From contig JAGGXZ010000182.1 in NCBI GenBank assembly GCA_021162805.1, positions 17,009 to 81,008 on the forward strand: a stretch of 64,000 nucleotides of DNA, in the 5' to 3' direction. Below are positions 1 through 54,975 of the stretch, in pieces; within the stretch, counting starts at the first letter, position 1, and each line of letters opens with the position of its first letter. Under the pieces are notes generated by a model that saw only the letters and a program-made list of their open reading frames with translations, made no database searches and was not told where the DNA came from. Source of the stretch: Candidatus Poribacteria bacterium. GTDB taxonomy: Bacteria; Poribacteria; WGA-4E; B28-G17. The translations under genes and the position numbers were made by a program.

Positions 1-1
1 T

Positions 2-523
2 TATGCCCTCACCCCGGACGGCCAGAGGGCGGAGATCGCCGAGAGGAGTATCTCGTTGGGCCCGGGCGAAAGGAGGAGGTTGAACCTCTCATACAGGCCG
101 TCCGAGTGGGGGAGATATAGGATAAGGGCGTTCCTGAACCTCAACCTCGGATCGCTTGAGACCGATTTCGGGAATAACTTCGCCTCGGGCGAGGTTGAGG
201 TGAGACGATCGCCCGCGGTATGGGGTTCAGCTACGGTCTATCCGAATCCCTACAACGGCGGCCGCCTTCGCATGGCGTATCAGCTGAGCTCTGACGCCGA
301 CGTATTCGTCAAGATCTACGATCTAACAGGCCATCTCATCGGGGAGAGGGAATTCGTCAGCGGCACGAAGGGCGGGTTGTGGGGCCCTAACGATGTGGTC
401 ATATGGGACGGGAAAAATCGGTTCGGCGAGAAGGCAGCATCGGGGATCTATCTGATCCATCTCATCGCTGTAAATCAACACGGGAGCGTCGAGATAGGGA
501 GGAGAGTATGTCTCGTAAAGTGA
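2..523 (+). CDS. 3' end of a secreted protein ending in a T9SS-type (Por/FlgD-Ig-like) C-terminal sorting domain. The 5' end lies outside the window.
   Basis: The frame starting at nt 2 stays open to the stop at 521-523. The last ~90 aa (VYPNPYNGG...IYDLTGHLIGE...WDGKNRFGEKAASGIYLIHL) carry the same YPNP / IYxLxG / WDxK...GxY pattern as the C-termini at 2245-2535 and 41757-42027. Confidence 0.5.
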   Translation, partial: YALTPDGQRAEIAERSISLGPGERRRLNLSYRPSEWGRYRIRAFLNLNLGSLETDFGNNFASGEVEVRRSPAVWGSATVYPNPYNGGRLRMAYQLSSDADVFVKIYDLTGHLIGEREFVSGTKGGLWGPNDVVIWDGKNRFGEKAASGIYLIHLIAVNQHGSVEIGRRVCLVK

Positions 524-2535
524 TCCCGATCCTCATCCTCCCTCTGATCCTGATGATGATCCCCTTCCTTTACGCCGCTCCGCCCCATCCTGATCTCGTG
601 AGACGATGGAAGAGAGAAGGTGATATGACCCTCTCCTCTCAACTGCCGTTTGCCGGCCACGATCTCAGACCCGGCCGCTACGCCATTCCGATGAAGGATG
701 GGATCGAATATGTGCTTGTGATACGGGTGGATTTTCCCGATAAACCCGCCGTCAGATCGAAGGAGGAGGTGGACGGCTTCTTCTTCGGCAGGGATCAGGT
801 CTCGCTTTATACTTATTATAAGGAGGTCTCTTACGGCAAGATGACCATCTCCCCGGGACCTATGGGCGGCAGTCTCCCTTGGGGTGAGAAGTGGTATAGG
901 ATGCCAAAGAGGATGAGCTATTATGGCGAGGGGCGAATGATGCTCGATCGATATCATGAGCTGATACGGAACGCCTGCGACGCCGCCGATCGGGACATCG
1001 ATTTCTCGAAATACGATAGGGACGGGGACGGATATGTCGATCACCTGATGTTGATACACGCCGGGGACGATGAGGCTTCCTCAGGCCGGTTTGAGGATAT
1101 CTGGTCGATGTTGATCCCATCGGTCAACCTCAGATATGACGGCGTTCGGATAAACAACGTCGCCGTCGTAGCCGAGGAGCCGAGCTACCCGAAGCCTCAT
1201 CTGGGAATCTTCTTCCATGAGTTCTTCCATGATTTCGGTGCGCCCGACCTTTACAGCGGCAGTGTGGCGGGGCCACATGACCAGCAATGGAGCTTGATGG
1301 GGATGTTCGGGCCTTATCAGGGGGCGAATAGGAACGGACTTGCGCCCGCCCACATCTGTGGATATCTCAAATGGGATTTCGACGCCAGGCCGGAAAACGG
1401 CCGGCACGGATGGATCAAGCCGGTGGAGATCACGCAAAATACGGAGGCGCTCGTCATACCCGCCTTCGAGACGGGCGATCCGGATAAGGTCCTCTACAAG
1501 ATAGATATCCCCGGCAAAAACGGTAGGGAGTTCTTCCTCATAGAGAACCGCGAGAGAAACTCGGGGGGGATGTATGACACATATCTTCCAGAATCCGGAA
1601 TTCTGATCTGGCATATAGATGAGACCGCCCCTCGAAGCGATACGAACGCGTCGGAAAGGGTATGGGTGGAGGATCCGTCCGATCCTGAGCATCTCGATCT
1701 GGAGCATATAACCGCCGGGGCCGCCTATTCTCTGGATGACGGCCAGACCGAGTTCACCCCATCGTCCGAGCCGAACAGCGATGCCAACGACGGCACGCCC
1801 TCCGGCATATCGATCGTCAACATCGGACATGAGGGGATCAAGATGCCGATCACGGTCTACTTCGGCGATACCTTCGAGCCGAACGACACGATCCAGCTCG
1901 CCTACGGGCCGCTGCTTTACGGGATCAGCTACGCGTCCTATATATTCGACGGGAACGATCCGGCCGACGTATACAGGATCGATCTCAAAAGGGGCGAGCC
2001 GGTGGAGATAAAGGTGGAGGATATCCCTGAGGGGGTGGTGATCGATGCCAAGCTGGTGGATGGGCTCGGCAACGTGTTGGCGAAAAGTGAGGAGGGGGAA
2101 AAGGGGTTTATCATCCTTTACAACCCGCCCGGCACCGGAACCGGATATCTGGTGGTAAGACGTATATCCGGATACGACCCGATCCACGCCTATCACGTCC
2201 GCATCGATCCTGTCACTCCATCATCCTCGCCGTTGAAGCTCACCAAGGTCTACGCCTATCCCAATCCGGTCCATCGAGGGGATAACGTGAGGTTCCACTT
2301 CGAGCTCGAGAACAAGGGCATGGCTGATGTGGTGGAGATATCCGTCTTCAATTTGAACCTGGATAGAGTTTACGGTGGGAAGATGGAGGATGTTATAGGG
2401 CGAAACGAATTCGGACCGTGGGATCTGAGAGATCCTAACGGCAGGAGATGCGCTCCGGGGATATATCTCTATCTTATCTCAGCCCGCCGAGGGAAAGATG
2501 TCTCCAGGGCGATCGGCAAGCTGGCGATTGAGTGA
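508..2535 (+). CDS. Secreted M6-family zinc metalloprotease (immune inhibitor A-like) with a PPC domain and a T9SS-type C-terminal sorting domain
   Basis: RBS AGGGAGGAG lies 4 nt upstream of ATG 508. N-terminus is hydrophobic (IPILILPLILMMIPFLYA). HEFFHDFGAPDLY is an HExxH zincin motif as in M6/InhA. There is an EPNDTIQLAYGP...DPADVYRI pre-peptidase C-terminal-like segment. The C-terminus reads VYAYPNPVHRGDNV...WDLRDPNGRRCAPGIYLYLI. Confidence 0.75.
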   Translation: MSRKVIPILILPLILMMIPFLYAAPPHPDLVRRWKREGDMTLSSQLPFAGHDLRPGRYAIPMKDGIEYVLVIRVDFPDKPAVRSKEEVDGFFFGRDQVSLYTYYKEVSYGKMTISPGPMGGSLPWGEKWYRMPKRMSYYGEGRMMLDRYHELIRNACDAADRDIDFSKYDRDGDGYVDHLMLIHAGDDEASSGRFEDIWSMLIPSVNLRYDGVRINNVAVVAEEPSYPKPHLGIFFHEFFHDFGAPDLYSGSVAGPHDQQWSLMGMFGPYQGANRNGLAPAHICGYLKWDFDARPENGRHGWIKPVEITQNTEALVIPAFETGDPDKVLYKIDIPGKNGREFFLIENRERNSGGMYDTYLPESGILIWHIDETAPRSDTNASERVWVEDPSDPEHLDLEHITAGAAYSLDDGQTEFTPSSEPNSDANDGTPSGISIVNIGHEGIKMPITVYFGDTFEPNDTIQLAYGPLLYGISYASYIFDGNDPADVYRIDLKRGEPVEIKVEDIPEGVVIDAKLVDGLGNVLAKSEEGEKGFIILYNPPGTGTGYLVVRRISGYDPIHAYHVRIDPVTPSSSPLKLTKVYAYPNPVHRGDNVRFHFELENKGMADVVEISVFNLNLDRVYGGKMEDVIGRNEFGPWDLRDPNGRRCAPGIYLYLISARRGKDVSRAIGKLAIE

Positions 2536-2967: not shown

Positions 2968-4107
2968 TCAGACGTATCCTGGCATCTCAGATAGGTCTCT
3001 GGCGTTCGGATGCCAGAGCCTGGTCAGATATGCCTCGAGCACGCCTCTGTTTTTATGCGGACGCTCGATACACGCTAGGACGAGCTCGTGGTCCACCTCG
3101 TCTGTCATCTGTATAAGCGCTTTGAGCCTATCCATATTGTTGATCAGCGCCCGATCGACCGGCATTCTCTCGGGGTTTATATCTATGCCGAGATACCCCC
3201 TATACCCGTGCATCTTCAGCACATATAGGGCGGCAAAGGCCTGTTCGGGGGAGATCACCCCGACGTTCAGGTCTTGGTCGTAATTACCCAGCGGTTGACT
3301 GTTCCAATGCGTATGGGCCAGCCTGCCCTGCCTCAATATCCTGCTGAACGAATACGCCAGATCCTCAAATCCCATCAGAACATGCCCCACCTCAGGGTTG
3401 AGCGTCACAAGGGCATGTCCCTCCTCAAGCAGCCTTCGGTTTTCCTCCGATGAGAGCTTTTTCTCGACGTCCTGAGCCATTATGAGTCCGTCGGCGGTAT
3501 TGCGATAGATGTTGTTGCCGCGAGGCTCGTAAGGTTTGGGCTCGATGGCGATCCTCACCCCCGGAACGGCATCCATCGCCTCGGCTAACCCCTCTTCGAA
3601 TCTATCCCACATAGCGTAGAAATCGATGCCGAAAGCCATCTCGAACCCGTCGATGCCGGGCCATACGATAGCGAAGTCGGTGTCGAGCTCCTTGTTCAGC
3701 TCAAGCGTCCTTATGGTTCGTTGGATGGCCTTACGCCTCACCTCGGGTATGGGCGATGAGAGGGAGCCGAACTCGAACTCCGGATCGTAGAAGAGACCGG
3801 GGACGATCGTGATCAGCCTTAACCCCGTATCCTTCTGAAGTTGTTTGTAAAGCTCGATGTTCTCCTCGTTCACCTCGGTCGGGTAATGTGCCTCAAGCCC
3901 TTTAAGCCCGTAATCCACCAACTCAGCGGCGATATCCAATCTCTCCTTGATGCTGAGCTCTCTTCCGTATCTGGCGTGGAATCTGCTTGCCGCGGGGGAG
4001 AAGTACCACACGCCGGCGGAGAACTTCGGCTCGAGCTTGAACTCCCTAAGATGTTTTATAAGTTCATCCCCCTTTCGGACCTTTGTCTGATCTCTCAGAT
4101 CTAACAT
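2968..4107 (-). CDS. Xylose isomerase-like TIM-barrel sugar isomerase (class I XylA-like, ~379 aa)
   Basis: RBS GGAGGG precedes ATG 4107 (MLDLRDQ). AIEPKPYEPRGN matches the FEPKPxEPRGD signature. HTHWNSQPLGNYDQDLNVG parallels the metal-site block HIDLNGQHGPKFDQDLVFG of class I xylose isomerases. Length fits class I. Confidence 0.55.
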   Translation of the reverse strand: MLDLRDQTKVRKGDELIKHLREFKLEPKFSAGVWYFSPAASRFHARYGRELSIKERLDIAAELVDYGLKGLEAHYPTEVNEENIELYKQLQKDTGLRLITIVPGLFYDPEFEFGSLSSPIPEVRRKAIQRTIRTLELNKELDTDFAIVWPGIDGFEMAFGIDFYAMWDRFEEGLAEAMDAVPGVRIAIEPKPYEPRGNNIYRNTADGLIMAQDVEKKLSSEENRRLLEEGHALVTLNPEVGHVLMGFEDLAYSFSRILRQGRLAHTHWNSQPLGNYDQDLNVGVISPEQAFAALYVLKMHGYRGYLGIDINPERMPVDRALINNMDRLKALIQMTDEVDHELVLACIERPHKNRGVLEAYLTRLWHPNARDLSEMPGYV

Positions 4108-4400: not shown

Positions 4401-5288
4401 GTGAACGAATTGAAAAGTATGACGGGCTACGGGCGAAGCTCCATTGAGACACCTTTCGGCAGGCTCGTCGTTGAGGTTAAAACGGTCAATCACAGATACA
4501 GCCAGATCTCCTCTCGAATTCCCTCTCAGCTCTCATCGCTCGAACCGAAAATACTGAAATCGCTGAAGCATAGGATCGCTCGTGGGCAGATCTATCTGAA
4601 CATGGAGTTGATCTCCGATGAGGGGACCACCTTCCCCAGAAAGGTCGTGGTGGATATCGATCTCGCCAGACAGTACAAGCGTTATCTCGATTCCCTTCGC
4701 GAATCCCTTGGGATAGATGAGCCGGTTTCGCTCTCTTTGATAGGATCGATGCCGGGGGTTTTCGAGTTGGTCGAGCCCGATCTGGATGAGGAGAAGACAT
4801 GGCGGTGGTTGGAGGAGGGATTGAACGAGGCTTTGGATGCCTTGGATGAGTCGAGGCTTGCTGAGGGGGAGAGGATGAAATCGGATATGTCCCAGCGGCT
4901 TTCCCTTATCGCCGGATCGATTGAGAGGATCAAGGAGATCGCCCGAAACGACGTGGAAAGATATATGAGAAAGCTCTCAGAGAGGATGAGGGAGATTCTG
5001 AAGGGTGAATACGATGAGGCGAGGCTCATGATGGAGGCAGCCATGCTGGCTGAAAAGTCGGATGTCTCCGAGGAGATCGTCCGAATGGAGAGCCATATAA
5101 AACGGTTTGAGGAGCTGGTCGAATCGGATGATCCCGTCGGCAGACAGATGGATTTCCTGTTGCAGGAGATGCTCAGAGAGGCTACAACCATGGCTTCCAA
5201 GGCCATATCGGCCGAGATCGTCTCCGAAACGGTGAAGATGCGGTCGGAGATAGATAAATTGAGAGAGATGGCCCAGAATGTCGAGTGA
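4401..5288 (+). CDS. yicC: YicC-family stress-induced protein
   Basis: N-terminal MTGYGRSSIE is the YicC hallmark, and the rest is a charged coiled-coil-rich protein of ~290 aa. A GTG at 4401 or the ATG at 4419 could be the start. The stop overlaps gmk. Confidence 0.75.
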   Translation: MNELKSMTGYGRSSIETPFGRLVVEVKTVNHRYSQISSRIPSQLSSLEPKILKSLKHRIARGQIYLNMELISDEGTTFPRKVVVDIDLARQYKRYLDSLRESLGIDEPVSLSLIGSMPGVFELVEPDLDEEKTWRWLEEGLNEALDALDESRLAEGERMKSDMSQRLSLIAGSIERIKEIARNDVERYMRKLSERMREILKGEYDEARLMMEAAMLAEKSDVSEEIVRMESHIKRFEELVESDDPVGRQMDFLLQEMLREATTMASKAISAEIVSETVKMRSEIDKLREMAQNVE

Positions 5289-5913
5289 GGGACAGCTCAT
5301 CGTCATATCCGGGCCTTCCGGCTCGGGCAAAAGCAGTCTCGTCGATCTGCTTCTGAGGAGAAATCCATCCCTGCGCCGCTCCATCTCCGCCACAACACGT
5401 CGGCCCAGACGAGAAGAACGTGATGGCGTGGATTACCACTTCATGAGCGTCGAGAGGTTCAAGGAGGGGATGGAGAGGGGGGAGTTCCTGGAGTGGGCGG
5501 TCTATAACGGGAACTACTACGGCACACCCAGAAAAGGGGTGGATGAGGCTATCTCCAGGGGAGAGGATATCCTGCTGACGATAGAGGTTCAGGGAGCAGC
5601 TCAGATAAGGAGGATCTATCCCGATGCCCTGCTCATATTCATCTTACCTCCTTCACCGGAATCGCTGAGGGAAAGGATCAAAAGGCGCGGGAGCGAATCG
5701 GAGGAGGAGATCGAACGAAGGCTCCGTATAGCGGAGGATGAGATATCCAAGATAGAGATCTACGACTTTTTCGTCATCAATCGGGAGGGCGAGCTGGAGA
5801 AGGCCGCTGAGGAGGTGGAGAGGATCATATCGATCGGAAAACACCGTTTGACCAGGGGAAGGATCGAGAAGATCAAACGCTTATATAGGGTGAGAACTTT
5901 AGCTCCAGTATGA
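5278..5913 (+). CDS. gmk: Guanylate kinase
   Basis: P-loop GPSGSGKSS, then SATTRRPRxxExDGVDYHF and YYGTP, typical of guanylate kinase. The yicC-gmk-rpoZ neighbourhood is the conserved one. Confidence 0.9.
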   Translation: MSSEGQLIVISGPSGSGKSSLVDLLLRRNPSLRRSISATTRRPRREERDGVDYHFMSVERFKEGMERGEFLEWAVYNGNYYGTPRKGVDEAISRGEDILLTIEVQGAAQIRRIYPDALLIFILPPSPESLRERIKRRGSESEEEIERRLRIAEDEISKIEIYDFFVINREGELEKAAEEVERIISIGKHRLTRGRIEKIKRLYRVRTLAPV

Positions 5914-6371
5914 CCGGACTAAGCATAGAGGATATCAAAGCAAATCTTGATAGTATGATGCGGAATCTCCATCAGGAGTTCGGAGATCGACTTATAGCCG
6001 TTGTCGTTTATGGAAGTTATGCTCGTGGATCGGCTAAACCGAAATCTGATGTTGATCTTCTGGTGGTGGTGAGGGGATTGCCGCGAGATTGGGATACCAT
6101 TCACCGTTTGGAGGATAGGTGGACGTTCAAAGGGCGACAATTTGGAAAGCGCTTCCAAGTTATGTTTGTAAGCCCGGAGGATGTAGAAGATTCCGTGGAA
6201 TATGCGGCGCCGTTGATGCTGGAGATTTATAACGCTCATAAAGTTATCTTTGATCAGAATGGATTCTTCAGAAACTGTATAATTCGTATGGAGCATCTCA
6301 TAAAGGAACGAGGAATCCGAATGAAAAGACAGGGGGTCTGGGAGGTTCCTGAGAGTGTTATCCCATCGTGA
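5910..6371 (+). CDS. Pol-beta-type nucleotidyltransferase (MNT-like toxin-antitoxin partner)
   Basis: GSYARGSAKPKSDVDLLVV is the GS...D.D minimal NTase motif. The start overlaps the gmk stop (ATGA). Composition is visibly more AT-rich than the flanks. Confidence 0.7.
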   Translation: MTGLSIEDIKANLDSMMRNLHQEFGDRLIAVVVYGSYARGSAKPKSDVDLLVVVRGLPRDWDTIHRLEDRWTFKGRQFGKRFQVMFVSPEDVEDSVEYAAPLMLEIYNAHKVIFDQNGFFRNCIIRMEHLIKERGIRMKRQGVWEVPESVIPS

Positions 6372-6810
6372 TATCAGCCGGGCTTTACTGATAGAGGCAT
6401 ATACCGATTTAAAGGCAGCGCAAGTACTAAGGCAGGCGGGCATTTACGCTCGATGTATAGCCCACTGTCAACATACCGTGGAAAAGACGCTTAAGGCGGC
6501 ATTGGCCATTAGGGATGTGCTCATCACCGATCGTCATGAAATATCAGAGGATTTCAGGCAGACTTGCTTTGACTGGGAATGCTGCAGCGAATTGGCGGAC
6601 ATCGCTGTTGAGATGGAAGCAATGAGGTCCCGCACGGAATATCCGCTATTTGGACGCCGAGATCTACCTATATGGCTTCCCTCTGAACGGTATACGGAAG
6701 CCGATGCAGATGAGGCTTTGGAGAAAACTCGATATGTGTTTAACACGGTGAAGTGCCGGTTATCGGACGAGTATGATATCCATTTCGAGATCGGAGGTGA
6801 TAAGGTATGA
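6355..6810 (+). CDS. HEPN-domain protein (partner of the preceding NTase)
   Basis: About 150 aa, all-alpha-like composition, immediately overlapping the NTase. The NTase+HEPN operon is a classic pairing. The stop overlaps the rpoZ start (ATGA). Confidence 0.6.
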   Translation: MLSHRDISRALLIEAYTDLKAAQVLRQAGIYARCIAHCQHTVEKTLKAALAIRDVLITDRHEISEDFRQTCFDWECCSELADIAVEMEAMRSRTEYPLFGRRDLPIWLPSERYTEADADEALEKTRYVFNTVKCRLSDEYDIHFEIGGDKV

Positions 6811-7145
6811 GAAACGTGATGATCGAAGATCTGGAGGAGATCGTCGGAAACAAGTATCTTGCTGCCAATATCGCGGCCAGACGAGCACGCCAGCTTAACA
6901 TAGGCGTTAGGCCTAGGATCAAGACAAACCACGTGAAGTATCCTTCCATCGCTTTGGAGGAGCTGGCCGCCGGAGAGTTGGAGTATAAACCGCTGCCGCG
7001 GGAGGCCAAACCGGATAGAGCTCTCTATCCCAGCAGAGAGGTGGACGAGGAGATCTCCGAGGAATTCCGCAAACAGATGCGATTTGTCACCGAGAAGGAG
7101 GAGATGAGAATGGATAGAGAGGCAATGGAGTTCGAGGATACCTGA
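6807..7145 (+). CDS. rpoZ: DNA-directed RNA polymerase subunit omega
   Basis: LAANIAARRARQL matches the RpoZ core (LxxxAAKRARQL). Small protein in the conserved position after gmk. Confidence 0.8.
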   Translation: MRNVMIEDLEEIVGNKYLAANIAARRARQLNIGVRPRIKTNHVKYPSIALEELAAGELEYKPLPREAKPDRALYPSREVDEEISEEFRKQMRFVTEKEEMRMDREAMEFEDT

Positions 7146-8347
7146 TGGACGCCCTCAAGGATAGGAACATACTTCTGGGAGTCACCGGAGGGATAGCGGC
7201 TTTTAAGGCCGCCTCCCTTGCCGGTCAGCTCATCAAGTTGGGAGCGAGCGTGAAGGTGGTGATGACCCATAATGCCACCCAGTTCATCTCGCCGCTCACC
7301 TTTCAAACGCTCTCGCGCAACCCCGTCTATCTCGATATGTTCTCCCCTATCAGTTGGCAGCCCGAACATATATCGCTGGCCGACTGGGCTGAGCTTTTCG
7401 TCATAGCCCCGGCGACCGCCAACGTCATAGGCAAACTCGCCCATGGGATAGCGGACGACCTTCTGACGACGATCGCTCTGGCCGTCAGGTGTCCCATTAT
7501 ATTGGCGCCCGCCATGAACTCCAACATGCTCGATAACCCCATCCTTCAGGATAACCTGGGATATCTGGAGGAACAGGGGTTCTTCATCATCGCTCCCGAA
7601 TACGGTCCCCTCGCATGTGGATATGAAGGGAAAGGGAGGCTGGCCGATTTAGACGTGATCGTCGAGACGATCAGGATGACTTTGACACCTAAGGATCTTG
7701 AAGGGATCAAGGTTCTGGTTACAGCCGGACCGACGAGGGAGAGGATTGATCCGATCAGGTTCATCACCAACAGATCCAGCGGTAAGATGGGATACGCCTT
7801 GGCGAGGGCCGCCCGCGACAGAGGCGCTCAGGTAACCCTGATAAGCGGCCCCACATCGCTCAGATCTCCTCCGTATGTGGAGTTTATCCAGGTCGAAACC
7901 GCCCTGCAGATGAAAGATGCCGTGATGGAGCGGTTCAAATGGGCGGATGTGCTCATCATGGCGGCCGCCGTGGCGGATTACAGGCCGAAAGAGAGCTTGG
8001 AGCGTAAGCTCAAAAAATCCGATTCAGAGTTGGTTCTCAGGCTCGCGCCCAACCCTGATATCCTTGCCGAGCTGGGCGGAGAAAAGGGAAATAAGATCCT
8101 GGTCGGATTCGCCGCGGAAACGGAACACGTCGTCTCCAACGCCCTGGAAAAACTGCGCGCCAAGAATCTCGATCTGATCGTCGCCAATAACATCCTGGAA
8201 CGAGGAGCCGGATTCGAATCCGACACCAATATCGTCACGATAATAGACGAAAGGGGAAAGGCCGAAAAGCTTCCGATCCTTTCCAAGGATGAGGTCGCGC
8301 ATAGAATCCTGGATAGGATATCAGAGATGATCCGCGGTGAAGGTTAG
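7145..8347 (+). CDS. coaBC: Bifunctional phosphopantothenoylcysteine decarboxylase / phosphopantothenate-cysteine ligase
   Basis: N-terminal flavoprotein fold (ILLGVTGGIAAFKA...PAMN) plus C-terminal DFP/CoaB ligase (GPT.E.IDPVR.I.N.SSGKMG...AAVADYRP). About 400 aa. Confidence 0.9.
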   Translation: MDALKDRNILLGVTGGIAAFKAASLAGQLIKLGASVKVVMTHNATQFISPLTFQTLSRNPVYLDMFSPISWQPEHISLADWAELFVIAPATANVIGKLAHGIADDLLTTIALAVRCPIILAPAMNSNMLDNPILQDNLGYLEEQGFFIIAPEYGPLACGYEGKGRLADLDVIVETIRMTLTPKDLEGIKVLVTAGPTRERIDPIRFITNRSSGKMGYALARAARDRGAQVTLISGPTSLRSPPYVEFIQVETALQMKDAVMERFKWADVLIMAAAVADYRPKESLERKLKKSDSELVLRLAPNPDILAELGGEKGNKILVGFAAETEHVVSNALEKLRAKNLDLIVANNILERGAGFESDTNIVTIIDERGKAEKLPILSKDEVAHRILDRISEMIRGEG

Positions 8348-9146: not shown

Positions 9147-10194
9147 CGTTTTAACGTTCAACGTCCTAACGCTCAGTTTCATACTATCATCTATACCCCT
9201 CGCGGATGTCAAGACGATATCGACGATCAGAACGGCTATGCATTCCCTTACGATCAAATCGGAATTCGATATCGCTGAAAGGAGAGCTATCTTTCACACA
9301 GCGATGAAGTTCCCATCCCCTCCTGAAGGACTGAGATGGAGGCTTGATCTTTACTCGTCTGATGGAGAGCTCATCAAGCGATTCGAAGGTGGGAAACTTC
9401 CTCCAAGCGTGATCGTCTGGTCGGCGCCAGGTGATCTGAGCGGAGGTGTGATCTACCAACTCACTCTCTCGTTCAGGGGAGTTGATTTCCCATCAACGCC
9501 ACGAGCGATCCTCCTGCCTACCTCACGATACATCTCCGAACTCCCCAAATTTCGCCTCCAAGCTCAACCGAAAGAGCTATCGGGTGGGACCTCCACCTTG
9601 GTGATCATCACCCCTATAGGAACGACTCACCTATCTATTCGGCCTAAGCTATGTGTGATGGACGAGGAGGGGGCGGAAGTATGGGGGAGAAAGCTGAATG
9701 GTGGACCGGAGCTGGTGAGGTGGGATGGGAAGGATGCTCATGGCAAGTCGGTCAATCCAGGGGTCTATATATGTGTGGTAAGAGAGAAAGGTATGATCCT
9801 TTCGAATTTCGTTATCTTGGTCGTAAGGCCTCCCGAGGAAAAGGGTTCCTTCTTCTCATCCTCGATACTCTTTCACCCCAAATCAGCAGAACTCACCTCG
9901 GAAGGTATGAATCGGATCGGCGAAGTTCTCTCCTTTGTCAGAGCTCATCCTGGGGTGGCTGTGAATCTGAGAGTTGGTATATCTCCCGGCGATCCAATCC
10001 GGGGGTTAGAACTGGCTTACAAAAGGGTCAAAGAGGTGATAGGGCAGCTTGATCGGGCTTCTCCGGGTCTCATCCGAATAACAGGGTTCATCCTGGAGAG
10101 CGATGAGGTCAGAGTGGATCTAGTTCCCTATCAAAGCGGAAATTTCTTCCCATCTCTAACCCCTTCCTCCGATCGTAGCTCCGATTCTCCCTAG
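9124..10194 (+). CDS. Hypothetical exported protein with a FlgD-Ig-like WDGKD..G..V.PGVY segment and a possible degenerate OmpA-like C-terminus
   Basis: Hydrophobic N-terminus. WDGKDAHGKSVNPGVYICVV resembles the FlgD-Ig / CTD motif. C-terminal FHPKSAEL...RVGISPGD...ELAYKRVKEV loosely resembles the OmpA/MotB C-domain. The start codon is uncertain. Confidence 0.3.
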   Translation: MGWLNAFNVLTFNVLTLSFILSSIPLADVKTISTIRTAMHSLTIKSEFDIAERRAIFHTAMKFPSPPEGLRWRLDLYSSDGELIKRFEGGKLPPSVIVWSAPGDLSGGVIYQLTLSFRGVDFPSTPRAILLPTSRYISELPKFRLQAQPKELSGGTSTLVIITPIGTTHLSIRPKLCVMDEEGAEVWGRKLNGGPELVRWDGKDAHGKSVNPGVYICVVREKGMILSNFVILVVRPPEEKGSFFSSSILFHPKSAELTSEGMNRIGEVLSFVRAHPGVAVNLRVGISPGDPIRGLELAYKRVKEVIGQLDRASPGLIRITGFILESDEVRVDLVPYQSGNFFPSLTPSSDRSSDSP

Positions 10195-10321: not shown

Positions 10322-10828
10322 ATGGCGAAGGAGAAAAGAATAGAAGGGGAAGGGGAAAAAAATGGAGGTTCAGGGATGCTTAAAAACCTCATTCCGTATC
10401 TGGGAACTTTGATCGCTTTAACCGCCATCGCGTATATAATGGTAACCAGATTCATGCCCGCACCGCCCTCCAGTGCCTCAATACAGCGGGGAGCAGTTCA
10501 AAGGAAGGAGGCCGAAACTGAAGAAAACGGGGTGCTTTATGAGTTTGGAGATGTCATCGCCAATCCGGCTCAAACTGAGGGCACCAGATTTCTGAAGGTG
10601 ACCATCTATCTGGAACTGCGCAAAGGGGAATATCAGAAGATCGTGGATAAGTATAAACCAAAACTGCAGGATGTGACCCTACAGATCCTTTCCTCAAAGA
10701 CGGTGGAAGAGCTGGAGGACGTATCCAAGAGGGGAGATCTCCGGAAGGAGATAACCGATGCAATGAACTCAGTGCTCGGAAGGAAAGTTGTGTTGAAGGT
10801 ATTCTTCACCGAATTCGTCATCCAGTGA
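10322..10828 (+). CDS. fliL: Flagellar basal-body-associated protein FliL
   Basis: Short charged N-terminus, a single TM segment (LIPYLGTLIALTAIAYIMV), then RFLKVTIYLEL...LSSKTVEEL...VFFTEFVIQ, which is the FliL consensus. Confidence 0.8.
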   Translation: MAKEKRIEGEGEKNGGSGMLKNLIPYLGTLIALTAIAYIMVTRFMPAPPSSASIQRGAVQRKEAETEENGVLYEFGDVIANPAQTEGTRFLKVTIYLELRKGEYQKIVDKYKPKLQDVTLQILSSKTVEELEDVSKRGDLRKEITDAMNSVLGRKVVLKVFFTEFVIQ

Positions 10829-10843
10829 TCAGAGGTTGAAAGG

Positions 10844-11896
10844 ATGGAGAAGCTTCTCTCTCAGGAGGAGATAGATGCTCTCTTAGATGCTATATCGAAT
10901 AAGAGGATCGATGAGGCGCGTCAACCATCCCAGGATGAGCCGAAATCCGTTAGGCTTTACGATTTCAGCAGGCCGGGCAGGGTTTCAAAGGATTACACCC
11001 GTTCCTTACATATCCTGCACCGCCACTTCGCCAGAATCTACAGCTCTTCCCTCTCATCGCTTCTGAGAACGCTTGTGGAGATAGAGTGCACTCAGGTGGA
11101 GCAATTGACGTACGGCGATTTCCTAATGTCCCTCTCGGAGATGTCCTGTCTGGTTATATTCTCCATGGAGCCGCTTAAAGGGGTAGCGGTGATGGAGATA
11201 GGACCGCAGTTGATCTTCCCCATGGTGGATAGACTGCTGGGAGGATCGGGGATGACATCAGTGGAACCTCATAGGATGACCGAGATCGAAAAATCCATAA
11301 TAGAGCGGGCCATAAAGGCCTCTTTAGAAGCCCTCGGCGAGATATGGAAATTCGTCTCCAAGGATATCAACGTTGAGCTTCAGAGAATAGAAACCGATCC
11401 GCAATACGTTCAGGTTATGGCCTCCAGCGATACGGTTATGTTGATCGTATTCGACGTTAAATTCGGTCAGACGATCGGGATGATGAGCATATGTTATCCC
11501 TTCTCTATGATAGAACCGGCCCTTATCAACGCCCGACCTGAGCAGTGGCTTTTCAACTATCATAGCGGCGGCGATGAGAAATACACGCCTGAGATACGGA
11601 GAAGGGTGGAGAAAGCGGATATAGTCGTCAGGGCCCATTTCCCACCAAGCAGGATAAAGCTTGGAGATCTCCTGAGACTGAAGGTGGGAGATATAATCAA
11701 ACTCGATGTGAGAATCAAAAACGGAAAGCTTCTCGATCCGGTCATACTGGATGTCGGCGGCCAGAAACGGTTCGTCGCCAAACCGGGGAGGGTCGGCAAA
11801 AAGAAGGCGGTCAAAATCATCGGCGTTTTAACTGACGAGGATGAGATAAACTTCCACGGGACCGGGAGTGTGAAAGATGGAGAATCTAAAGCCTGA
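10844..11896 (+). CDS. fliM: Flagellar motor switch protein FliM
   Basis: N-terminal [10 protein letters not shown] (the CheY-P-binding LSQxEIDALL motif), a middle FliM domain and a C-terminal FliN-like segment. About 350 aa. Confidence 0.9.
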
Positions 11897-12290
11897 AGAG
11901 ATAAACAATATGTCGCCGGAGGAGCTTCAGAGCTTAGCGGACTCCTCCCAAGAGGACGTTTTAGGAGAGGAATTTCAGGTGGAAGAGGGAGAGGAGAAGA
12001 TATCGATCCCATATGAGGAGGAGCTCCCGAAGGACAACATAGAGCTGCTGATGGATGTCGAGCTGGATGTCATAATCGAGCTGGGCCGGACCAAGATGCG
12101 GATAGGAGACATATTGAGGCTGGTGCCGGGCGCTATAATCGAACTGGATAAGCTCGCCGGCGAGCCGGTGGATGTTTTGGTCAACAACAAGCCTATCGCT
12201 AAGGGAGAAGTGGTGGTCCTGGACGAAAACTTCGGCGTGAGGATCACCAGCATAATCAATCAGGAGCAGAGACTTAAAAGCCTAGGGTGA
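11877..12290 (+). CDS. fliN: Flagellar motor switch protein FliN
   Basis: C-terminal SpoA/FliN domain ([58 protein letters not shown]). Overlaps the fliM end. Confidence 0.85.
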
Positions 12291-12293
12291 GGG

Positions 12294-12788
12294 ATGAAGA
12301 GGAATTTGTTGAGTTTTGGAGTTCGTTGCGTTATAGCGTTCGTTACGTTCAGCGCAATGGCACAATTCGCCTGGACAGGGCAATCGGGACCTAAGGGTGG
12401 ACTCGATTACGAGAGACCCGATCTCCCAGGCATGCCCGATCTCCTAGGAGCGACACTGCGCGTGGCATTGGGGCTTATCATCGTGGTAGCCCTTCTTATC
12501 GGAGGGTTTTACCTTCTAAAAAGGCTTTCAGGTAGGGTGAGGCTGCAAGAGGAAGACATACCGGTCAAGCTGCTCTGGCAACAGAGCATCGGGCCGAGGC
12601 GATCCATATGCCTGGTCAAAGTTCTCGATAAGGTGCTGGTATTGGGCGTGACGAACACAAACATATCCCATCTGATGACGCTAACGAATGAGGAAGCGAG
12701 CTCACTTGAGATCCGACCGGAGATGGGCGGATCCACCGATCTCATCTCAGCTTTCAAAAAGCTGAGCGGTTTGAGGTTTAAAAGATGA
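12294..12788 (+). CDS. fliO: Flagellar biosynthesis protein FliO
   Basis: Single TM segment (LGLIIVVALLIGGFYLL), then LLWQQSIGPRRSICLVKVLDKVLVLGVT, the FliO pattern (hydrophobic stretch, then rxxl-VxVgxxxLLLGVTxxxI). Positioned between fliN and fliP. Confidence 0.6.
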   Translation: MKRNLLSFGVRCVIAFVTFSAMAQFAWTGQSGPKGGLDYERPDLPGMPDLLGATLRVALGLIIVVALLIGGFYLLKRLSGRVRLQEEDIPVKLLWQQSIGPRRSICLVKVLDKVLVLGVTNTNISHLMTLTNEEASSLEIRPEMGGSTDLISAFKKLSGLRFKR

Positions 12789-13540
12789 GAAGGTGGGTTG
12801 CCATAGCTGTGATCGCCCTGTCTCTGATTCCCTGTCTTTGCCAGGGCCAGCAGATCATACCTCTACCCCGCATCACCGTCGATGTGGGAGCGGCCAATGC
12901 GGAAAACCCACGGCAGCTTTCCACGGCCATACAGATCCTTTTCCTAATAACAGCCCTCTCCCTGGCACCCGCCTTCCTGATTATGATGACATCGTTCACC
13001 AGGATCATAGTAGTGCTTTCGTTTTTAAGACATGGACTTGCGACCCAGCAGTTGCCATCCAATCAGATATTGGCAGGGTTGGCCTTATTCTTAACCGTCT
13101 TCGTGATGATGCCAATATGGAAGGATATAAACGAGAACGCCCTCAAACCCTATCTGGATGGTAAGATAGATCAATCCCAGGCGTTCCATAATGCCATCTC
13201 CCCGCTTAGAAAATTCATGTTCAAACAGACAAGGACAAAGGATCTGGCCTTAATGGTCAAGCTCTCCGGGATGCCGAAACCCAAAAACGAAAATGATGTG
13301 CCCACGTATGTCCTGATACCGGCCTTTGTGATCAGCGAGCTGAAAACGGCGTTCCAAATAGGATTTCTGCTTTTCGTGCCGTTTCTGGTGATAGATATGG
13401 TCGTGGCCTCAATATTGATGGCCATGGGGATGATGATGGTGCCGCCGGTGATAATCTCACTGCCATTTAAAGTCCTGCTTTTCGTGCTCGTGGACGGATG
13501 GAGCCTCGTCGTCGGCTCTCTTGTGGGCAGTTTCAGATAG
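12785..13540 (+). CDS. fliP: Flagellar export-gate protein FliP
   Basis: Signal peptide plus the highly conserved FliP core ([45 protein letters not shown]...[26 protein letters not shown]). Confidence 0.9.
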   Translation: [251 protein letters not shown]

Positions 13541-13549
13541 GGGGAGACT

Positions 13550-13819
13550 ATGGAGCTTGAAAGGACGGTCTATGTATTAAGTGAAGCGATAAAGCTCGTT
13601 TTTCTGCTTTCAGGGCCCGTGCTGTTGGCCTGCCTTGGCGTGGGACTTATAGTGAGTGTCCTTCAGGCGCTCACTCAGATCCAGGAGATCACTCTCAGTT
13701 TTGTGCCCAAGATATTGGCCGCCTTCGTGACGCTGGCGATATTTCTGCCGTGGATGCTGAAGTTGGCTGTCAGTTTTACTACAGCTCTGCTCAGAAACGT
13801 AGACCTGTTCATCAGATAA
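13550..13819 (+). CDS. fliQ: Flagellar export-gate protein FliQ
   Basis: 89 aa with two TM segments. GPVLLACLGVGLIVSVLQALTQIQEITLSFVPKI matches FliQ. Confidence 0.9.
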   Translation: MELERTVYVLSEAIKLVFLLSGPVLLACLGVGLIVSVLQALTQIQEITLSFVPKILAAFVTLAIFLPWMLKLAVSFTTALLRNVDLFIR

Positions 13820-13891
13820 CCTTCGTTCATATTGAGGAACAAGGAGCGAGAAAATAATGACAAGGAGACAAGGTGACAATGGGATAAAGAG

Positions 13892-14662
13892 ATGGGTATA
13901 GATTTAACGGGCATGGAAAGGTTCATATTGGTTCTCTTTAGAGCTGCTGGAGTTGTGACCTTCGTGCCTTTTTGGGGAAGTAGGTTGATACCTGTTAAGG
14001 TCAAGATAGGGCTCTGCTTCGTCCTGGCCGTCGTGTTCTACTCCATATCGGCGGGGGTAAGCTTCTCGCCGACGGAGGATATATTCAAACTGAGCTGGAT
14101 GATACTGAAAGAGACAGCCGTCGGTGCTGTGTTAGGTCTGGCCGGACATGTGGTGTTCTCCGGGGTGGAACTCGCAGGCGAGATGGCGGGGATGCAGATG
14201 GGGCTTAGGATGGCAACAGCTGTGGACCCCCAGTTCGAGACACAATCATCCCTGCTGGCCCAATTCAACGTGCTCTTCGCTCTGATGGTGCTTCTAGCGA
14301 TAAACGGACACTATTGGTTCTTGGAAGGCTTGGCCAGATCGTTCCGACTTATCCCACCTGGAGGAATGGTACTGCGTGAGGTTACCTTCGCTCGGATGAT
14401 GGCCCTCGTGGGGGATTTATTCCTGATAGGCCTGAAGATGAGCGCACCGATAGTTGTAGCTATGCTGATAACGAATGCCGCTTTGGGGTTAATGGTGAGG
14501 GTGGTACCTCAGATGAACATCTTCGTCGTAGGATTTCCCGTCCTGATCGCCGTTGGTCTGATCCTTCTTTTCTTCTCCTTGAAGGCTATCGCCTATCTCC
14601 TGATAAACCTTTTCCTGCAGATGCATAAGGACATAGACTTTCTCATCGGAGAGTTAGGATGA
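13892..14662 (+). CDS. fliR: Flagellar export-gate protein FliR
   Basis: About 256 aa polytopic membrane protein, with FLLVLFRAAGVVTFVPFWG...VLGLAGHVVFSGVELAGEMAGMQMGL typical of FliR. The stop overlaps the next ORF. Confidence 0.85.
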   Translation: MGIDLTGMERFILVLFRAAGVVTFVPFWGSRLIPVKVKIGLCFVLAVVFYSISAGVSFSPTEDIFKLSWMILKETAVGAVLGLAGHVVFSGVELAGEMAGMQMGLRMATAVDPQFETQSSLLAQFNVLFALMVLLAINGHYWFLEGLARSFRLIPPGGMVLREVTFARMMALVGDLFLIGLKMSAPIVVAMLITNAALGLMVRVVPQMNIFVVGFPVLIAVGLILLFFSLKAIAYLLINLFLQMHKDIDFLIGELG

Positions 14663-17217
14663 AGGAGAAGGGTTTAAGCTCGAAGGAGGTCGAAAGGCTA
14701 TCGGCTATCCTGAGAAATGAAGCGGCCAGCACTCGGGAGAGGCTCCTGGCAATCAGAGCCCTCTCGACGATCGACTCGCCGCACGTATTAGCCAATATAT
14801 TGTTGGTTGCCAGCTCACAGAATAAAAGGCTAGCTCAGGAAGGAGCTGAGTTGATAAGGAAGCTCGATCAAGCCTCCCTCTTCAAGCTTCTGGATCATAT
14901 GCTGCTCAATAGGGAGGAGATCGGCTACTTCGGTCAGAAGATGTTTGAGGTTCTCTACAAGCTGAGGGAACAGGATGTGCTCAAATATATAGTGATAAAC
15001 GCCATCAAAAACGGGGAGGAGTGGGGGGAGAAAAGGCGGACCTTAAGCCAGTGGATGAGAAATTTGGGGCTGATAGAAAAATACGTGGATCTTCTAGGCG
15101 AGCTTCCGGTTGAATTGGCCAAATCATTGGGAAAGATCCTCAAGAAGGTTGATGACAGGGTGGTGCTTGATATAGCCCGATCGGCGAAAGGTATAAAGGG
15201 TATAAACAAAGAGAAGAGCGTTAAACTCCTCGATGTCCTTTATGATGTGGCGGATAACGAGGGAATAGCTCCGATATTGGTCAATCTGCTCTCGAGCGAC
15301 GATCAGAGAATAAGATCCAAAACGGCGCTTATACTGGGTAAGCTTTCGGATAACCTCCATTTCTTCCATAACGCCCTTAAAGATCCAGATCCGCGCGTCA
15401 GAGCCAATGCGGTGGAAGGACTATGGGGGCTTGATAACCCAAAGGCGAGGGATATATATCTAGAGGCTCTCGGCGATGAGAACAACCGCGTTAGAGCTAA
15501 TGCGGCCAAAGGACTCTACGAGATGGGTGATCCTAGGGGACTTCAGGTGTTGAAAGAGATGATTGATGATCATGATGGGATGATGCGCGCCAGTTCCGCC
15601 TGGGTGTTGGGCGAGATGGGAGATACCAGTATGATAGGGAAGCTCGAAAGTATGGCTGCCGGAGATCCAGCTGAGATAGCCCGCCGCAATGCCATCAGGG
15701 CGATCGAGAAGATACTCACCAAAAAGGTTGTTCCCACCCTGCGGGATCTCATCCGCTTTATGAACAAGATCGATCCGGATGCGGTTTCAAACCCTCTGAG
15801 GTTTTTCAGAAGAATTGCTGCCCTGAGATCGATAAGATCTGAGATGCTTGTTGAGGTGCTCAGCGCTGCTCCGCCGGTCGATTCCCCGATCGTAAGGCGC
15901 AAGCTGATAGAATCCATAGCCGGCGGTCTTGAGGATATGGCGGATGACGGTTTGCTTCTACTCGCCTTGATGTCGGCGATCCGATTTGACAAGATGTCGT
16001 TCTGGAGCAGGATCATAGAGGGTATCCAGGCGATGATACAGAGGCCGGAGGATAGATTGACGATCCTCAGCGGAGGGGTGGAAACGATGCCGGATATGCT
16101 CCTGGCGACCCTCAAAGAGGGCATGCCCTCAACTGCCGCTCCCATAGCCGAGATCCTAAGATGGGAAGATGAGGCGATAATCGAAAGACTGAAACCTCTG
16201 CTTGATGATTCGAACCCTCTCGTTAGATCGCTGGCAGCGGAGACGATCGGCCTCCTCGGAAGATTTGAAACGCTCGATCGGCTGGAGGAGATGGCTCGAT
16301 CCGATCCTGATCCTTCTGTCAGGGAAAAAGCTCTGAAGGCAATTGAAAGGCTGAAAACAACGGCCGAAATCACCTCTACCCTTCCCGATGAACTGCATAT
16401 GAGGATCCTCCATCTTTCGTTGGAAAACCTTCCGGAGATCTCAATCTCAGTGTCTCTCATGGATGGTAACTCGAACTCTATAGATACCTTGAGGGAAGAG
16501 GAGATCCACCTCTTCGAAAACGGCAGGCCGATAGACTGCAGATTCGAGCGACTTGGAGAGGAAATGCCGGTTTATGTTGTGATACTGATGGACTACAGCT
16601 TGAGCATGTCGGACGAAGATATATACAGGATGGAAGAGGCTGTCTCAGAGTTTATTTCCTCAGTGAAAGGTGAGGATCGAATAGCGATCCTGAAGTTCGC
16701 CTCAGAGATATACGTCCCACAGCCGCTGAACAAGGTGGATCGCCTGCGTCATGACCCTATCAGAGGAGGATTTAAGGGGGACAGAGACGGAACCATGCTA
16801 TATGATGCCTTGGATAGGGCGATCTCTATCCTCAACGAGCTGGAGGGGATAAAGCTGGCCATAGTGCTGACCGACGGGGAGGACAGCGGAAGTACCAAGA
16901 CGGCCAAAGACGTCATCCATAACGCTCTTAAAAACGGGATAAGCATCCACGCCATAGCTCTGGGAGATGAGGTCGACGAGGGAACACTCAGAAACCTGGC
17001 CATATCGACCGGTGGCGCCCTATATGCCACCGGCGATCCCGGTGAGCTTGGAAAGATCTACCGGGAGATCTCATCCTCACTGCAGTCCCATTACAGATTG
17101 AGCTATAGGTCTTGGGCCTGGGATAATGAAGTCCAAAACGCATTTTTAATCATCAGAGCTGATCTCGGCCCGTTAACCCCTGAAGCTTGGACAAAGGTGA
17201 TACTGAGAAATGGCTGA
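14659..17217 (+). CDS. Cytoplasmic HEAT-repeat + von Willebrand factor A (VWA) domain protein embedded in the flagellar export operon. Function unknown.
   Basis: ATG 14659 overlaps the fliR stop (ATGA) and the 3' end overlaps flhB ATG 17210. No signal peptide or TM. HEAT/PBS-lyase-like repeats: DPDPRVRANAVEGL, DENNRVRANAAKGL, DHDGMMRASSAWVLGEMGD, DSNPLVRSLAAETIGLLG, DPDPSVREKALKAIERL. C-terminal VWA with MIDAS residues (LMDYSLSMS...GTMLYDAL...LTDGED). Confidence 0.7.
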   Translation: MKEKGLSSKEVERLSAILRNEAASTRERLLAIRALSTIDSPHVLANILLVASSQNKRLAQEGAELIRKLDQASLFKLLDHMLLNREEIGYFGQKMFEVLYKLREQDVLKYIVINAIKNGEEWGEKRRTLSQWMRNLGLIEKYVDLLGELPVELAKSLGKILKKVDDRVVLDIARSAKGIKGINKEKSVKLLDVLYDVADNEGIAPILVNLLSSDDQRIRSKTALILGKLSDNLHFFHNALKDPDPRVRANAVEGLWGLDNPKARDIYLEALGDENNRVRANAAKGLYEMGDPRGLQVLKEMIDDHDGMMRASSAWVLGEMGDTSMIGKLESMAAGDPAEIARRNAIRAIEKILTKKVVPTLRDLIRFMNKIDPDAVSNPLRFFRRIAALRSIRSEMLVEVLSAAPPVDSPIVRRKLIESIAGGLEDMADDGLLLLALMSAIRFDKMSFWSRIIEGIQAMIQRPEDRLTILSGGVETMPDMLLATLKEGMPSTAAPIAEILRWEDEAIIERLKPLLDDSNPLVRSLAAETIGLLGRFETLDRLEEMARSDPDPSVREKALKAIERLKTTAEITSTLPDELHMRILHLSLENLPEISISVSLMDGNSNSIDTLREEEIHLFENGRPIDCRFERLGEEMPVYVVILMDYSLSMSDEDIYRMEEAVSEFISSVKGEDRIAILKFASEIYVPQPLNKVDRLRHDPIRGGFKGDRDGTMLYDALDRAISILNELEGIKLAIVLTDGEDSGSTKTAKDVIHNALKNGISIHAIALGDEVDEGTLRNLAISTGGALYATGDPGELGKIYREISSSLQSHYRLSYRSWAWDNEVQNAFLIIRADLGPLTPEAWTKVILRNG

Positions 17218-20370: not shown

Positions 20371-20432
20371 GCCCGCAAAGGCATGTTTCTTGCTTAACTT
20401 TCACCTCGATACCGTCAGGGGGAGTTCGACAG

Positions 20433-21578: not shown

Positions 21579-21580
21579 GC

Positions 21581-23202: not shown

Positions 23203-23330
23203 AACGGATGAGCTGCTACCGCTTAAAGCGTTAAACATAATGCTTAACGAGATGCGATCGAAATTAGACATGAAACTGATGAAGGAATTCATAGGATTTC
23301 TCGCCCAGAGCGAGAAGGCCACTCCAATCC

Positions 23331-46612: not shown

Positions 46613-46843
46613 ATGGCTGTGCGCGATATAACTATCGCTAAGATTCGGCAATTACCCGAATCCTTAGTTCAAGAGGTAAGCGATTTCATCGATTTTCTGC
46701 TGATGAAACATGATAAAACACGCTGGCTGTTATGGATACATTTCGCTGAAGCCTTAGAGCTAGCCGAATCCGATTTTGATGAATATCTGGCTAACCTGGA
46801 GAACTATGAAGATCGCCTTGCGCGTGGGGAAATCCAATGGTGA
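46613..46843 (+). CDS. Type II antitoxin (DUF2281-like) paired with a MazF/PemK toxin
   Basis: About 76 aa. AKIRQLPESLVQEVSDFIDFLLMKH resembles DUF2281 antitoxins. The stop overlaps the toxin start. AT-richer than the flanks. The alternative upstream start at 46595 overlaps the previous gene. Confidence 0.5.
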   Translation: MAVRDITIAKIRQLPESLVQEVSDFIDFLLMKHDKTRWLLWIHFAEALELAESDFDEYLANLENYEDRLARGEIQW

Positions 46844-54834: not shown

Positions 54835-54975
54835 TCTCCTGTCCCCCTTTATCTGCGTTATATTCTTCCATACTCCACTCAATTTGTTCCAGTTTTTGGG
54901 GGGCAGGTCAATCCAAAGGGTAGGAAGCAATACAACGGTAGGGTTGAAAGGAGCTTCAGAACTGATGATGAGGAG

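Follow-up and report, generated by a model that had tools for sequence, protein, structure and literature searches.

Tagged proteins and a PorV/PorQ-family barrel in the window

The window analysed here is a stretch of 64,000 nucleotides from Candidatus Poribacteria (assembly GCA_021162805.1, contig JAGGXZ010000182.1, positions 17,009 to 81,008), which encodes three proteins ending in the same C-terminal tail (referred to below as the tag) together with an outer-membrane beta-barrel. An original prediction, made from the letters of the window, had read the tag as a type IX secretion system (T9SS) C-terminal domain (CTD) and the barrel as a PorV/PorQ-like component, and had proposed a T9SS-like cargo system in a flagellated genome. 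Together with its flanks (10 kb on the left and 7.4 kb on the right), about 82 kb of sequence was readable for this analysis. The left flank was read from L001, a public metagenome contig that also spans this region, and identical proteins were present on JGI and ENA contigs. Open reading frames (ORFs) were found at all four places where the tagged proteins and the barrel had been predicted (2-523, 508-2535, 31051-42027 and 49690-50685), and a fourth tagged gene was recognised upstream of the window. The relevant features are as follows:

2-523, plus strand: 3' end of an M28 peptidase gene, encoding the C-terminal 173 aa; CTD at roughly nucleotides 221-520
508-2535, plus strand: M6 family metalloprotease, 675 aa; M6 domain at residues 72-369, CTD at about residues 579-674 (nucleotides 2242-2532)
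31051-42027, plus strand: giant FN3 / bacterial Ig-like repeat protein, 3,658 aa, adhesin-like; Pfam fn3, Big_13 and Big_3_2
49690-50685, minus strand: PorV/PorQ-family (UPF0164/FadL-like) outer-membrane beta-barrel, 331 aa; NF033709
50685-50957, minus strand: conserved 90-aa ORF directly upstream of the barrel; 73% identical to a 100-aa gene in the same slot of a relative (L087 9479-9781)
L001 2190-3527, about 7 kb upstream of the window, minus strand: fourth tagged protein, a lamin-tail-domain protein of 445 aa, detected with the tail hidden Markov model (HMM)

The full M28 gene was recovered from L001 (8322-10016), where it encodes 564 aa and scored 127.7 bits against Peptidase_M28. The M6 protease matched TIGR03296 with 152.7 bits (cut-off 110.8), retained an intact HEFFH zinc motif and is named M6 family metalloprotease domain-containing protein by NCBI. 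The M28, M6, giant, lamin-tail-domain and barrel proteins all had signal-peptide-like N-termini, that is, hydrophobic stretches read straight from the sequence. In the giant protein the CTD occupied residues 3570-3655 (nucleotides 41758-42015) and was preceded by a conserved module of about 75 residues (3495-3569; window 41533-41757), which was also found in tagged proteins of Desantisbacteria, Elusimicrobia, Firestonebacteria and Endomicrobiales (alignments of about 160 aa, with at most 42% identity). The conservation of these residues across phyla, alongside the CTD itself, suggests a C-terminal module made of two parts. Two DUF6785 membrane proteins and a 117-aa DUF4625-like protein (L001 3597-4208, minus strand, and 5781-7652, plus strand) were encoded in the same cluster as the cargo genes, between the tagged lamin-tail-domain gene and both tagged peptidase genes.

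The shared tail comprised about 90 aa. BLASTP comparisons of the three window proteins gave significant similarity C-terminus to C-terminus only (M6 versus giant, 30.5% identity over 95 aa, E = 4e-8; M28 versus giant, E = 2e-5; M28 versus M6, E = 7e-4), in agreement with the prediction that one domain is carried by three otherwise unrelated proteins. The motifs that had been proposed for it (YPNP; I/V-Y-x-L-x-G-x-L; WD..N..G....G-I/V-Y-L-Y) were seen in the tail alignments. When the six-frame ORFs of the window (60 aa or longer) were searched with the tail HMM, no C-terminal copy beyond those of these three proteins was revealed, and in all four local proteins the tail stopped 0-3 residues before the stop codon. 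When scored against TIGR04183 (T9SS type A, cut-off 23), the M28 tail (24.9 bits) and the giant tail (32.7-33.3 bits) passed and the full-length M6 protein gave no match, so that two of the three reached the type A cut-off. All three window tails matched the PorU and PorZ models in their C-terminal domains, with 26.1 and 21.7 bits, respectively, for the M6 tail and 49.6-51.5 bits for the giant tail against PorZ. Por_Secre_tail (PF18962, cut-off 27) reached 22.4 bits with the M28 tail and 15.7 bits with the giant tail, and did not match the M6 protein. The top Pfam match of the tails was FlgD_ig, which was below the gathering score in the tail scan and reached 28.5 bits (cut-off 27) when the giant protein was scanned at full length. 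Full-length FlgD equivalog models scored 12.6-20 bits against cut-offs of 230-383, and their Ig-like part alone was aligned.

A wider set of 63 tails (three from the window, one from L001 and 59 from other genomes) gave a similar picture. At E ≤ 0.01, TIGR04183 matched 53 of them, and the C-termini of PorU and PorZ matched 50 and 49, respectively; TIGR04131, the model for type B CTDs, matched only seven. The profile built from all 63 tails retrieved PorZ (1e-11), PorU (2e-10), FlgD (7e-8) and T9SS substrate CTDs (5e-6) from the PDB sequences. The giant tail was modelled by AlphaFold (AF2) as a beta-sandwich of seven strands with a pLDDT of 89.4. The best Foldseek match of this model was PorZ (5m11; E = 1e-6, TM 0.79, root-mean-square deviation 2.0 Å), followed by PorU (6za2), the NucA CTD (8glk_D, bound in a T9SS complex), the RgpB CTD and the mirolase CTD; FlgD structures were also among the fold matches. 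The predicted relationship of the tail to both T9SS sorting domains and the FlgD Ig fold was thus recovered by NCBIfam scores, by the PDB profile and by fold comparison. Judged from these profiles and from the modelled fold, the tail is a T9SS-type CTD, with the CTDs of PorZ and PorU as its nearest relatives.

The aligned tails ended in a conserved G-K-x-[IV]-x-[IV]-[IL]-[KR] sequence. Of 78 ORFs that matched the tail, 73 carried it at the C-terminus; some large proteins, few in number and all from other genomes, contained internal copies. Comparison of the CTD profile with 5.8 billion proteins returned 15 short fragments only. JGI names one CTD-only metagenome fragment (P0095) 'flagellar hook assembly protein FlgD', and NCBI gives the name 'T9SS type A sorting domain-containing protein' to P0070, part of a relative that is 90% identical to the giant; the annotation of the CTD is inconsistent between databases.

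The barrel protein contained the motif G.R..GMGEA...ADD......NPAGL and passed the models for the PorV/PorQ family (NF033709, 100.3 bits, cut-off 90) and for Pfam UPF0164 (27.5 bits, cut-off 21.4), in keeping with its NCBI name, 'UPF0164 family protein'. It scored 46.3 bits against the PorV2 equivalog (cut-off 325). Toluene_X (PF03349, FadL/TodX) was not matched above its cut-off (17.9 versus 29.7 bits), with residues 40-74 alone being aligned. The AF2 model of the barrel (pLDDT 89.6) had about 15 DSSP strand segments, preceded by an N-terminal segment with short helices that is FadL-like in sequence. In Foldseek, the PorV chains 8gl6_F (TM 0.71) and 6h3i_F (TM 0.69), both derived from SprA-PorV complexes, ranked ahead of FadL, TbuX and TodX, and a profile of 34 barrel homologues retrieved PorV 6h3i_F (E = 9e-37, 130 bits) far ahead of TodX (9e-6, 28 bits). 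The barrel had been predicted to be a FadL-like member of the PorV/PorQ family, and the family model, the fold and the profile all supported this assignment.

The 90-aa ORF directly upstream of the barrel was called as a gene in two related loci (L088 and L089), and its sole Pfam match was a weak one to DUF4446. The same slot was taken in a further relative (L086) by a gene for a 258-aa OmpA-domain protein (9228-10004), which overlapped the barrel start by 4 nt. Directly downstream of the window barrel (48326-49666, minus strand) lay the gene for a 446-aa iron-type alcohol dehydrogenase, whose best NCBIfam match was glycerol-1-phosphate dehydrogenase, an archaeal-lipid enzyme (204 bits, below the cut-off of 413).

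Coupling of tagged genes and barrels in other genomes

The genomic context of related barrels was studied in loci picked by barrel homology alone. An alignment of eight barrel sequences served as the query (the 34-sequence alignment was too diverse for this purpose), one genome per GTDB species was scanned, and the best 80 of 281 matches were taken, which biases the set to query-like barrels. The ORFs of these loci were called mechanically from the first possible start codon, and the gaps between them are approximate. A same-strand gene ending in a CTD was found immediately upstream of 43 of the 84 barrels with a readable upstream neighbour, at a median gap of 16 nt and with a 4-nt overlap in eight pairs. 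CTD genes accounted for 59 of the 863 genes in the loci (100 aa or longer), and against this background the binomial probability of the upstream coupling was 8e-28. A CTD gene was located downstream of ten barrels only, and several of the loci concerned held more than one tagged-gene/barrel pair; at least two such pairs were present in eight loci, e.g., L040.

Pairs were frequent under the submitters' labels Elusimicrobia (7/8), Firestonebacteria (6/8) and FCPU426 (6/7) and were also found in Desantisbacteria, with single cases labelled WOR-3, Spirochaetia and others. The labels 'Clostridia', 'Dehalococcoidales' and 'Nitrospirota' in the locus set are probably wrong, since the barrel is a protein of the diderm outer membrane. 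The passenger domains were varied and included PQQ/BamB-like, Kelch and BNR propellers, PKD and CarboxypepD_reg domains. Clustering of all barrel neighbours gave no further gene that accompanies the pair in different phyla. Within the literature searched, no earlier description of such a tag-barrel gene coupling across several phyla was found. Propeller-plus-CTD proteins of about 730 aa from Firestonebacteria were considered as candidates for PorZ and rejected, as they were PQQ/BamB-like by sequence and left PorZ unmatched.

Homologues of the giant protein (32-34% identity over 1,400-2,260 aa) were encoded in three loci, two labelled Poribacteria and one unlabelled (L013, L014 and L015), where the barrels were 34-37% identical to that of the window. 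In L013 and L014 the giant gene ended 3 nt before the barrel gene or overlapped it by 4 nt, and in L015 the barrel match started about 105 nt past the stop codon of the giant gene. Outside Poribacteria, the barrels most similar to that of the window were mostly coupled to tagged genes. The idea of an old giant-barrel-phosphoesterase operon, with a metallophosphoesterase gene after the giant gene, was rejected; the 410-aa gene of the relatives has no homologue in the window.

Lineage and T9SS core genes

The original prediction had inferred a lineage of the Fibrobacterota-Chlorobiota-Bacteroidota (FCB) type, and this part of it was incorrect. The source of the contig is labelled Candidatus Poribacteria, which NCBI taxonomy places with the 'Bacteria candidate phyla'; the FCB group has 17 children there, and Poribacteria is not one of them. 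The closest relatives of the barrel came from metagenome-assembled genomes labelled Poribacteria or unlabelled, at identities of 93%, 51% and then 30-38%. The claimed coexistence of flagellar genes with the tag and the barrel was confirmed by Pfam and NCBIfam matches from fliL to fliA:

10322-24137, plus strand: flagellar genes fliL, fliM, fliN, fliO, fliP, a fliQ-sized ORF, fliR, a HEAT/VWA gene, flhB, flhA, flhF, flhG and fliA

The fliQ candidate is a hydrophobic ORF of 89 aa (13550-13819), named by its size and hydrophobicity alone. A che operon and motB were located just past the right end of the window. The window organism is a free-living, flagellated and chemotactic member of Candidatus Poribacteria. 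The flagellar genes provide context and do not belong to the tag-barrel system. A combination of flagella with T9SS is not unusual in itself; Rhodothermus and Salinibacter, both flagellated, possess T9SS genes. Between fliR and flhB lies an unusual insertion in the otherwise standard fliL-to-flhG order (14659-17217, plus strand), a gene whose 852-aa product combines HEAT repeats with a VWA domain.

The T9SS core set considered here comprised sprA/sov, porK/L/M/N (gldK-N), porU, porZ, porT and porW. None of these families was detected among the scanned window proteins (the larger ORFs; some small ORFs were not scanned), in the Pfam labels of the two flanks or among the neighbours scanned in the related loci. 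Nothing linking T9SS to Poribacteria or Elusimicrobia was found in the searched literature, and literature searches on T9SS in candidate phyla or on the FlgD_ig tail returned nothing relevant. T9SS genes have been stated to be absent outside the FCB phyla (PMC11285876; PMC12421860).

A PorK candidate came from a Poribacterium of the sponge type (L052; closed chromosome OZ241980.1), in which a gene for a 273-aa FGE-sulfatase-domain protein (4717-5538) is the direct upstream neighbour of a second barrel paralogue, a more distant one (5699-6805). This adjacency was conserved in five genomes. The candidate was rejected; it scored 179 bits against GldK/PorK (cut-off 350) and matched a generic FGE-sulfatase domain, and it is probably a generic sulfatase-maturase domain protein.

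Several further features of the region were recorded. A nucleotidyltransferase/HEPN pair was inserted between gmk and rpoZ (window 5910-6810, plus strand), and a MazF/PemK toxin gene was located downstream of a GH129-like gene (46837-47181, plus strand). Short ORFs matching the N-terminus of UPF0236 (54285-55314, plus strand), between the nagB block and a TolB-like propeller gene, look like remnants of a transposase-like gene. The PEPCK ORF of the window encodes 608 aa and the called gene 590 aa, from another start. In the relative whose barrel is 51% identical (L086 12294-16220), the large subunit of ribonucleotide reductase carried two intein insertions (Intein_splicing, LAGLIDADG_3).

A putative display route and its relation to known systems

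Both the tag and the barrel are homologous to T9SS parts, the tag is modular and occurs on unrelated proteins, and the genes of the two are strongly coupled. Taking these observations together, we consider it probable that the barrel recognises the tag and serves as carrier or surface anchor of the tagged protein, in the manner of PorQ with PorZ. In the proposed sequence of events, the tagged proteins would be exported by Sec, as their N-termini suggest, and the PorV/PorQ-like barrel would then recognise the CTD and carry or anchor the protein at the surface. We infer this recognition from the homology of both partners, from the gene coupling and from the precedents of PorZ-PorQ, PorU-PorV and the binding of type B CTD proteins to PorP-like barrels. 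PorZ and PorU retain their CTDs and are anchored by PorQ and PorV, respectively (PMC10947112), and PorP-like barrels serve as binding partners of type B CTD proteins (PMC9143113). Were the N-terminal segment of the barrel to fill its lumen, the barrel would be unlikely to be the pore itself, and the outer membrane would have to be crossed with another machine. That this machine is a translocon of the SprA/PorKLMN type encoded elsewhere in the genome appears about as probable as some other route.

Several observations weigh against the proposed role of the barrel. Only one barrel is visible for at least four tagged proteins, and a one-to-one anchor model therefore does not fit this locus as it stands. 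The window barrel adjoins no tagged gene; 7.6 kb separates it from the giant gene, which is on the other strand, and it belongs to a conserved nagB-pta-glmU-x-barrel block that is also present in closer relatives. Only one of the 23 counted Poribacteria-labelled barrels had a tagged gene upstream (two more loci, one of them unlabelled, fell outside the count), so that within Poribacteria the coupled arrangement is the exception. The barrel stayed below the equivalog cut-offs for PorV (NF033710, 30.8 versus 250 bits) and PorQ (NF033711, 64.7 versus 220 bits), and no translocon was identified in the sequence scanned. Physical binding between tag and barrel, and the surface display of the tagged proteins, are deduced from homology, precedent and gene coupling. 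The original prediction is partly supported, in that its parts were correctly recognised, its lineage was wrong and its T9SS cargo system is a hypothesis.

A smaller but appreciable likelihood attaches to an ordinary, complete T9SS, in which the core genes would lie elsewhere in the genome, the tagged proteins would be type A cargo cleaved by PorU, and the barrel would be the organism's PorV or PorQ. The clear homology of tag and barrel to T9SS parts agrees with such a system, several cargo proteins per barrel would suit a general shuttle, and a barrel plugged by its N-terminal segment, should the model be correct in this respect, would need a separate translocon. The name that PGAP already gives to the fragment of the giant's 90%-identical relative, 'T9SS type A sorting domain-containing protein', points the same way. 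These points are opposed by the lack of any core family among the scanned window proteins, in the Pfam labels of the 17 kb of flanks and among the scanned neighbours of related loci, by the published restriction of T9SS genes to FCB (PMC11285876; PMC12421860), and by the failure of the barrel to reach the PorV and PorQ equivalog cut-offs. Moreover, the nearest relatives of the tag are the CTDs of PorZ and PorU, which stay uncleaved, and not the cleaved CTDs of cargo. Were an ordinary T9SS present, the sole news would be that Poribacteria have one.

It is unlikely that the barrel is unrelated to the tagged proteins and acts as a FadL/LptO-like channel for lipids or molecules related to lipopolysaccharide (LPS), for which its surroundings nevertheless provide an argument. 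In close relatives of the window organism, the conserved nagB-pta-glmU(alt)-x-barrel block is followed by genes for a metallophosphoesterase and a lipid A acyltransferase (L087 10897-13074; L086 10997-12229), and in Eisenbacteria a stand-alone barrel adjoins a gene for an LpxH-like diphosphatase (L082 9661-11445). The folds that follow PorV in the ranking are those of FadL, TodX and TbuX, with which the barrel shares the NPA-type N-terminal motif, and PorV itself was first described as LptO, required for LPS O-deacylation (as cited within PMC10947112). The position of stand-alone barrels beside lipid A genes hints at a link to LPS, in line with this older name of PorV, and a role of such barrels related to lipids or LPS would be compatible with their envelope-biosynthesis context. 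The sequence evidence runs counter to a lipid channel, as PorV is far ahead of FadL and TodX by profile (130 versus 28 bits) and Toluene_X remains below its cut-off (17.9 versus 29.7 bits), and most of the nearest barrels from outside the sublineage are paired with tagged genes, some of which encode homologues of the giant. There is very little to be said for the view that the tail is a structural or adhesive Ig-like domain of the FlgD type, spread by domain shuffling and devoid of a sorting role: FlgD_ig is its top Pfam match (below cut-off in the tail scan), FlgD is among its fold and sequence matches and a few large proteins of other genomes hold internal copies, against which stand its extreme C-terminal position in all four local proteins and in 73 of 78 matching ORFs, its conserved terminal G-K-x-[IV]-x-[IV]-[IL]-[KR], its tight coupling to a downstream PorV-like barrel, the ranking of PorZ, PorU and T9SS substrate CTDs above FlgD as matches, and scores of 13-20 bits with full-length FlgD models (cut-offs of at least 230).

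The recognition of the tag by the barrel, if correct, could also be given a broader form. A tagged gene and a PorV/PorQ-like barrel might constitute a self-contained display module that works without SprA and PorKLMN, is widespread outside FCB (Elusimicrobiota, Firestonebacteria, Desantisbacteria, FCPU426 and some Poribacteria and Spirochaetia) and provided the stock for PorV, PorQ and the CTDs of PorU and PorZ in T9SS; we put this forward tentatively and regard it as rather doubtful. Independence of the pair from T9SS in most of the phyla that carry it is given a similarly low likelihood.

The presence of a T9SS-type tag and a carrier barrel in Poribacteria is relevant since the host lies outside FCB, the group to which reviews confine T9SS and its parts. 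If Poribacteria possess a T9SS, the system reaches well beyond FCB. If they do not, the pair would represent an older, independent route for the display of large proteins at the outer membrane, which bears on the origin of T9SS. There are also consequences for annotation. A tail of this kind may at present be called FlgD, called a T9SS sorting domain or left without a name, and the barrel goes under UPF0164; which proteins are predicted to be secreted or surface-exposed in many candidate phyla depends on the reading of the tag.

Among known proteins, the Ig-like domain of the flagellar hook cap FlgD has a fold related to that of the tail and gives weak profile matches to it. Unlike FlgD, the window proteins have no FlgD N-terminal region, and their tail is strictly C-terminal on exported enzymes. 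The FadL/TodX/TbuX channels and the UPF0164 proteins of Treponema share with the window barrel a FadL-like beta-barrel fold and an N-terminal NPA-type motif. Unlike FadL, the barrel family of the window is genetically coupled to CTD proteins and is much closer to PorV; to our knowledge, no such coupling has been reported for FadL.

The type B CTD proteins and their PorP/SprF-like barrels, known from Flavobacterium johnsoniae and from PG1035-PorP of Porphyromonas gingivalis, follow the same logic of a CTD protein with its own anchoring barrel (PMC9143113; PMC11205867). They differ from the present pair in both partners, since the tail belongs to another CTD class (TIGR04131 matched only 7/63 tails) and the barrel is of the PorV/PorQ/UPF0164 type and not PorP/SprF. 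The type A CTD cargo of Bacteroidota (TIGR04183), which is shuttled by PorV, resembles the window proteins in combining a signal-like N-terminus with a C-terminal beta-sandwich of about 80-90 aa on unrelated hydrolases and adhesins, and M6-like, M36 and other peptidases are cargo classes of T9SS recognised in NCBIfam. Unlike such cargo, the M6 protein had no TIGR04183 match, none of the window tails passed Por_Secre_tail, and the WD(G/L)KN..G...SGIYLY motif of the window tail is FlgD_ig-like.

The attachment complex of the P. gingivalis T9SS, with its pairs PorZ-PorQ and PorU-PorV, differs from the window in that the host of the latter is outside FCB and that SprA, PorKLMN and machinery for A-LPS (the anionic form of LPS) were not seen in the sequence scanned. 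The passengers are also distinct, being peptidases, an Ig/FN3 giant or propellers and not a C25-type sortase or a PorZ fold. The likeness lies in the partners themselves: the CTDs of PorZ and PorU are the best matches of the window tag, and the window barrel belongs to the same PorV/PorQ family, with PorV as its best solved relative. The order of a tagged gene followed by a barrel gene, as found in the coupled loci, recalls the adjacency of porU and porV.

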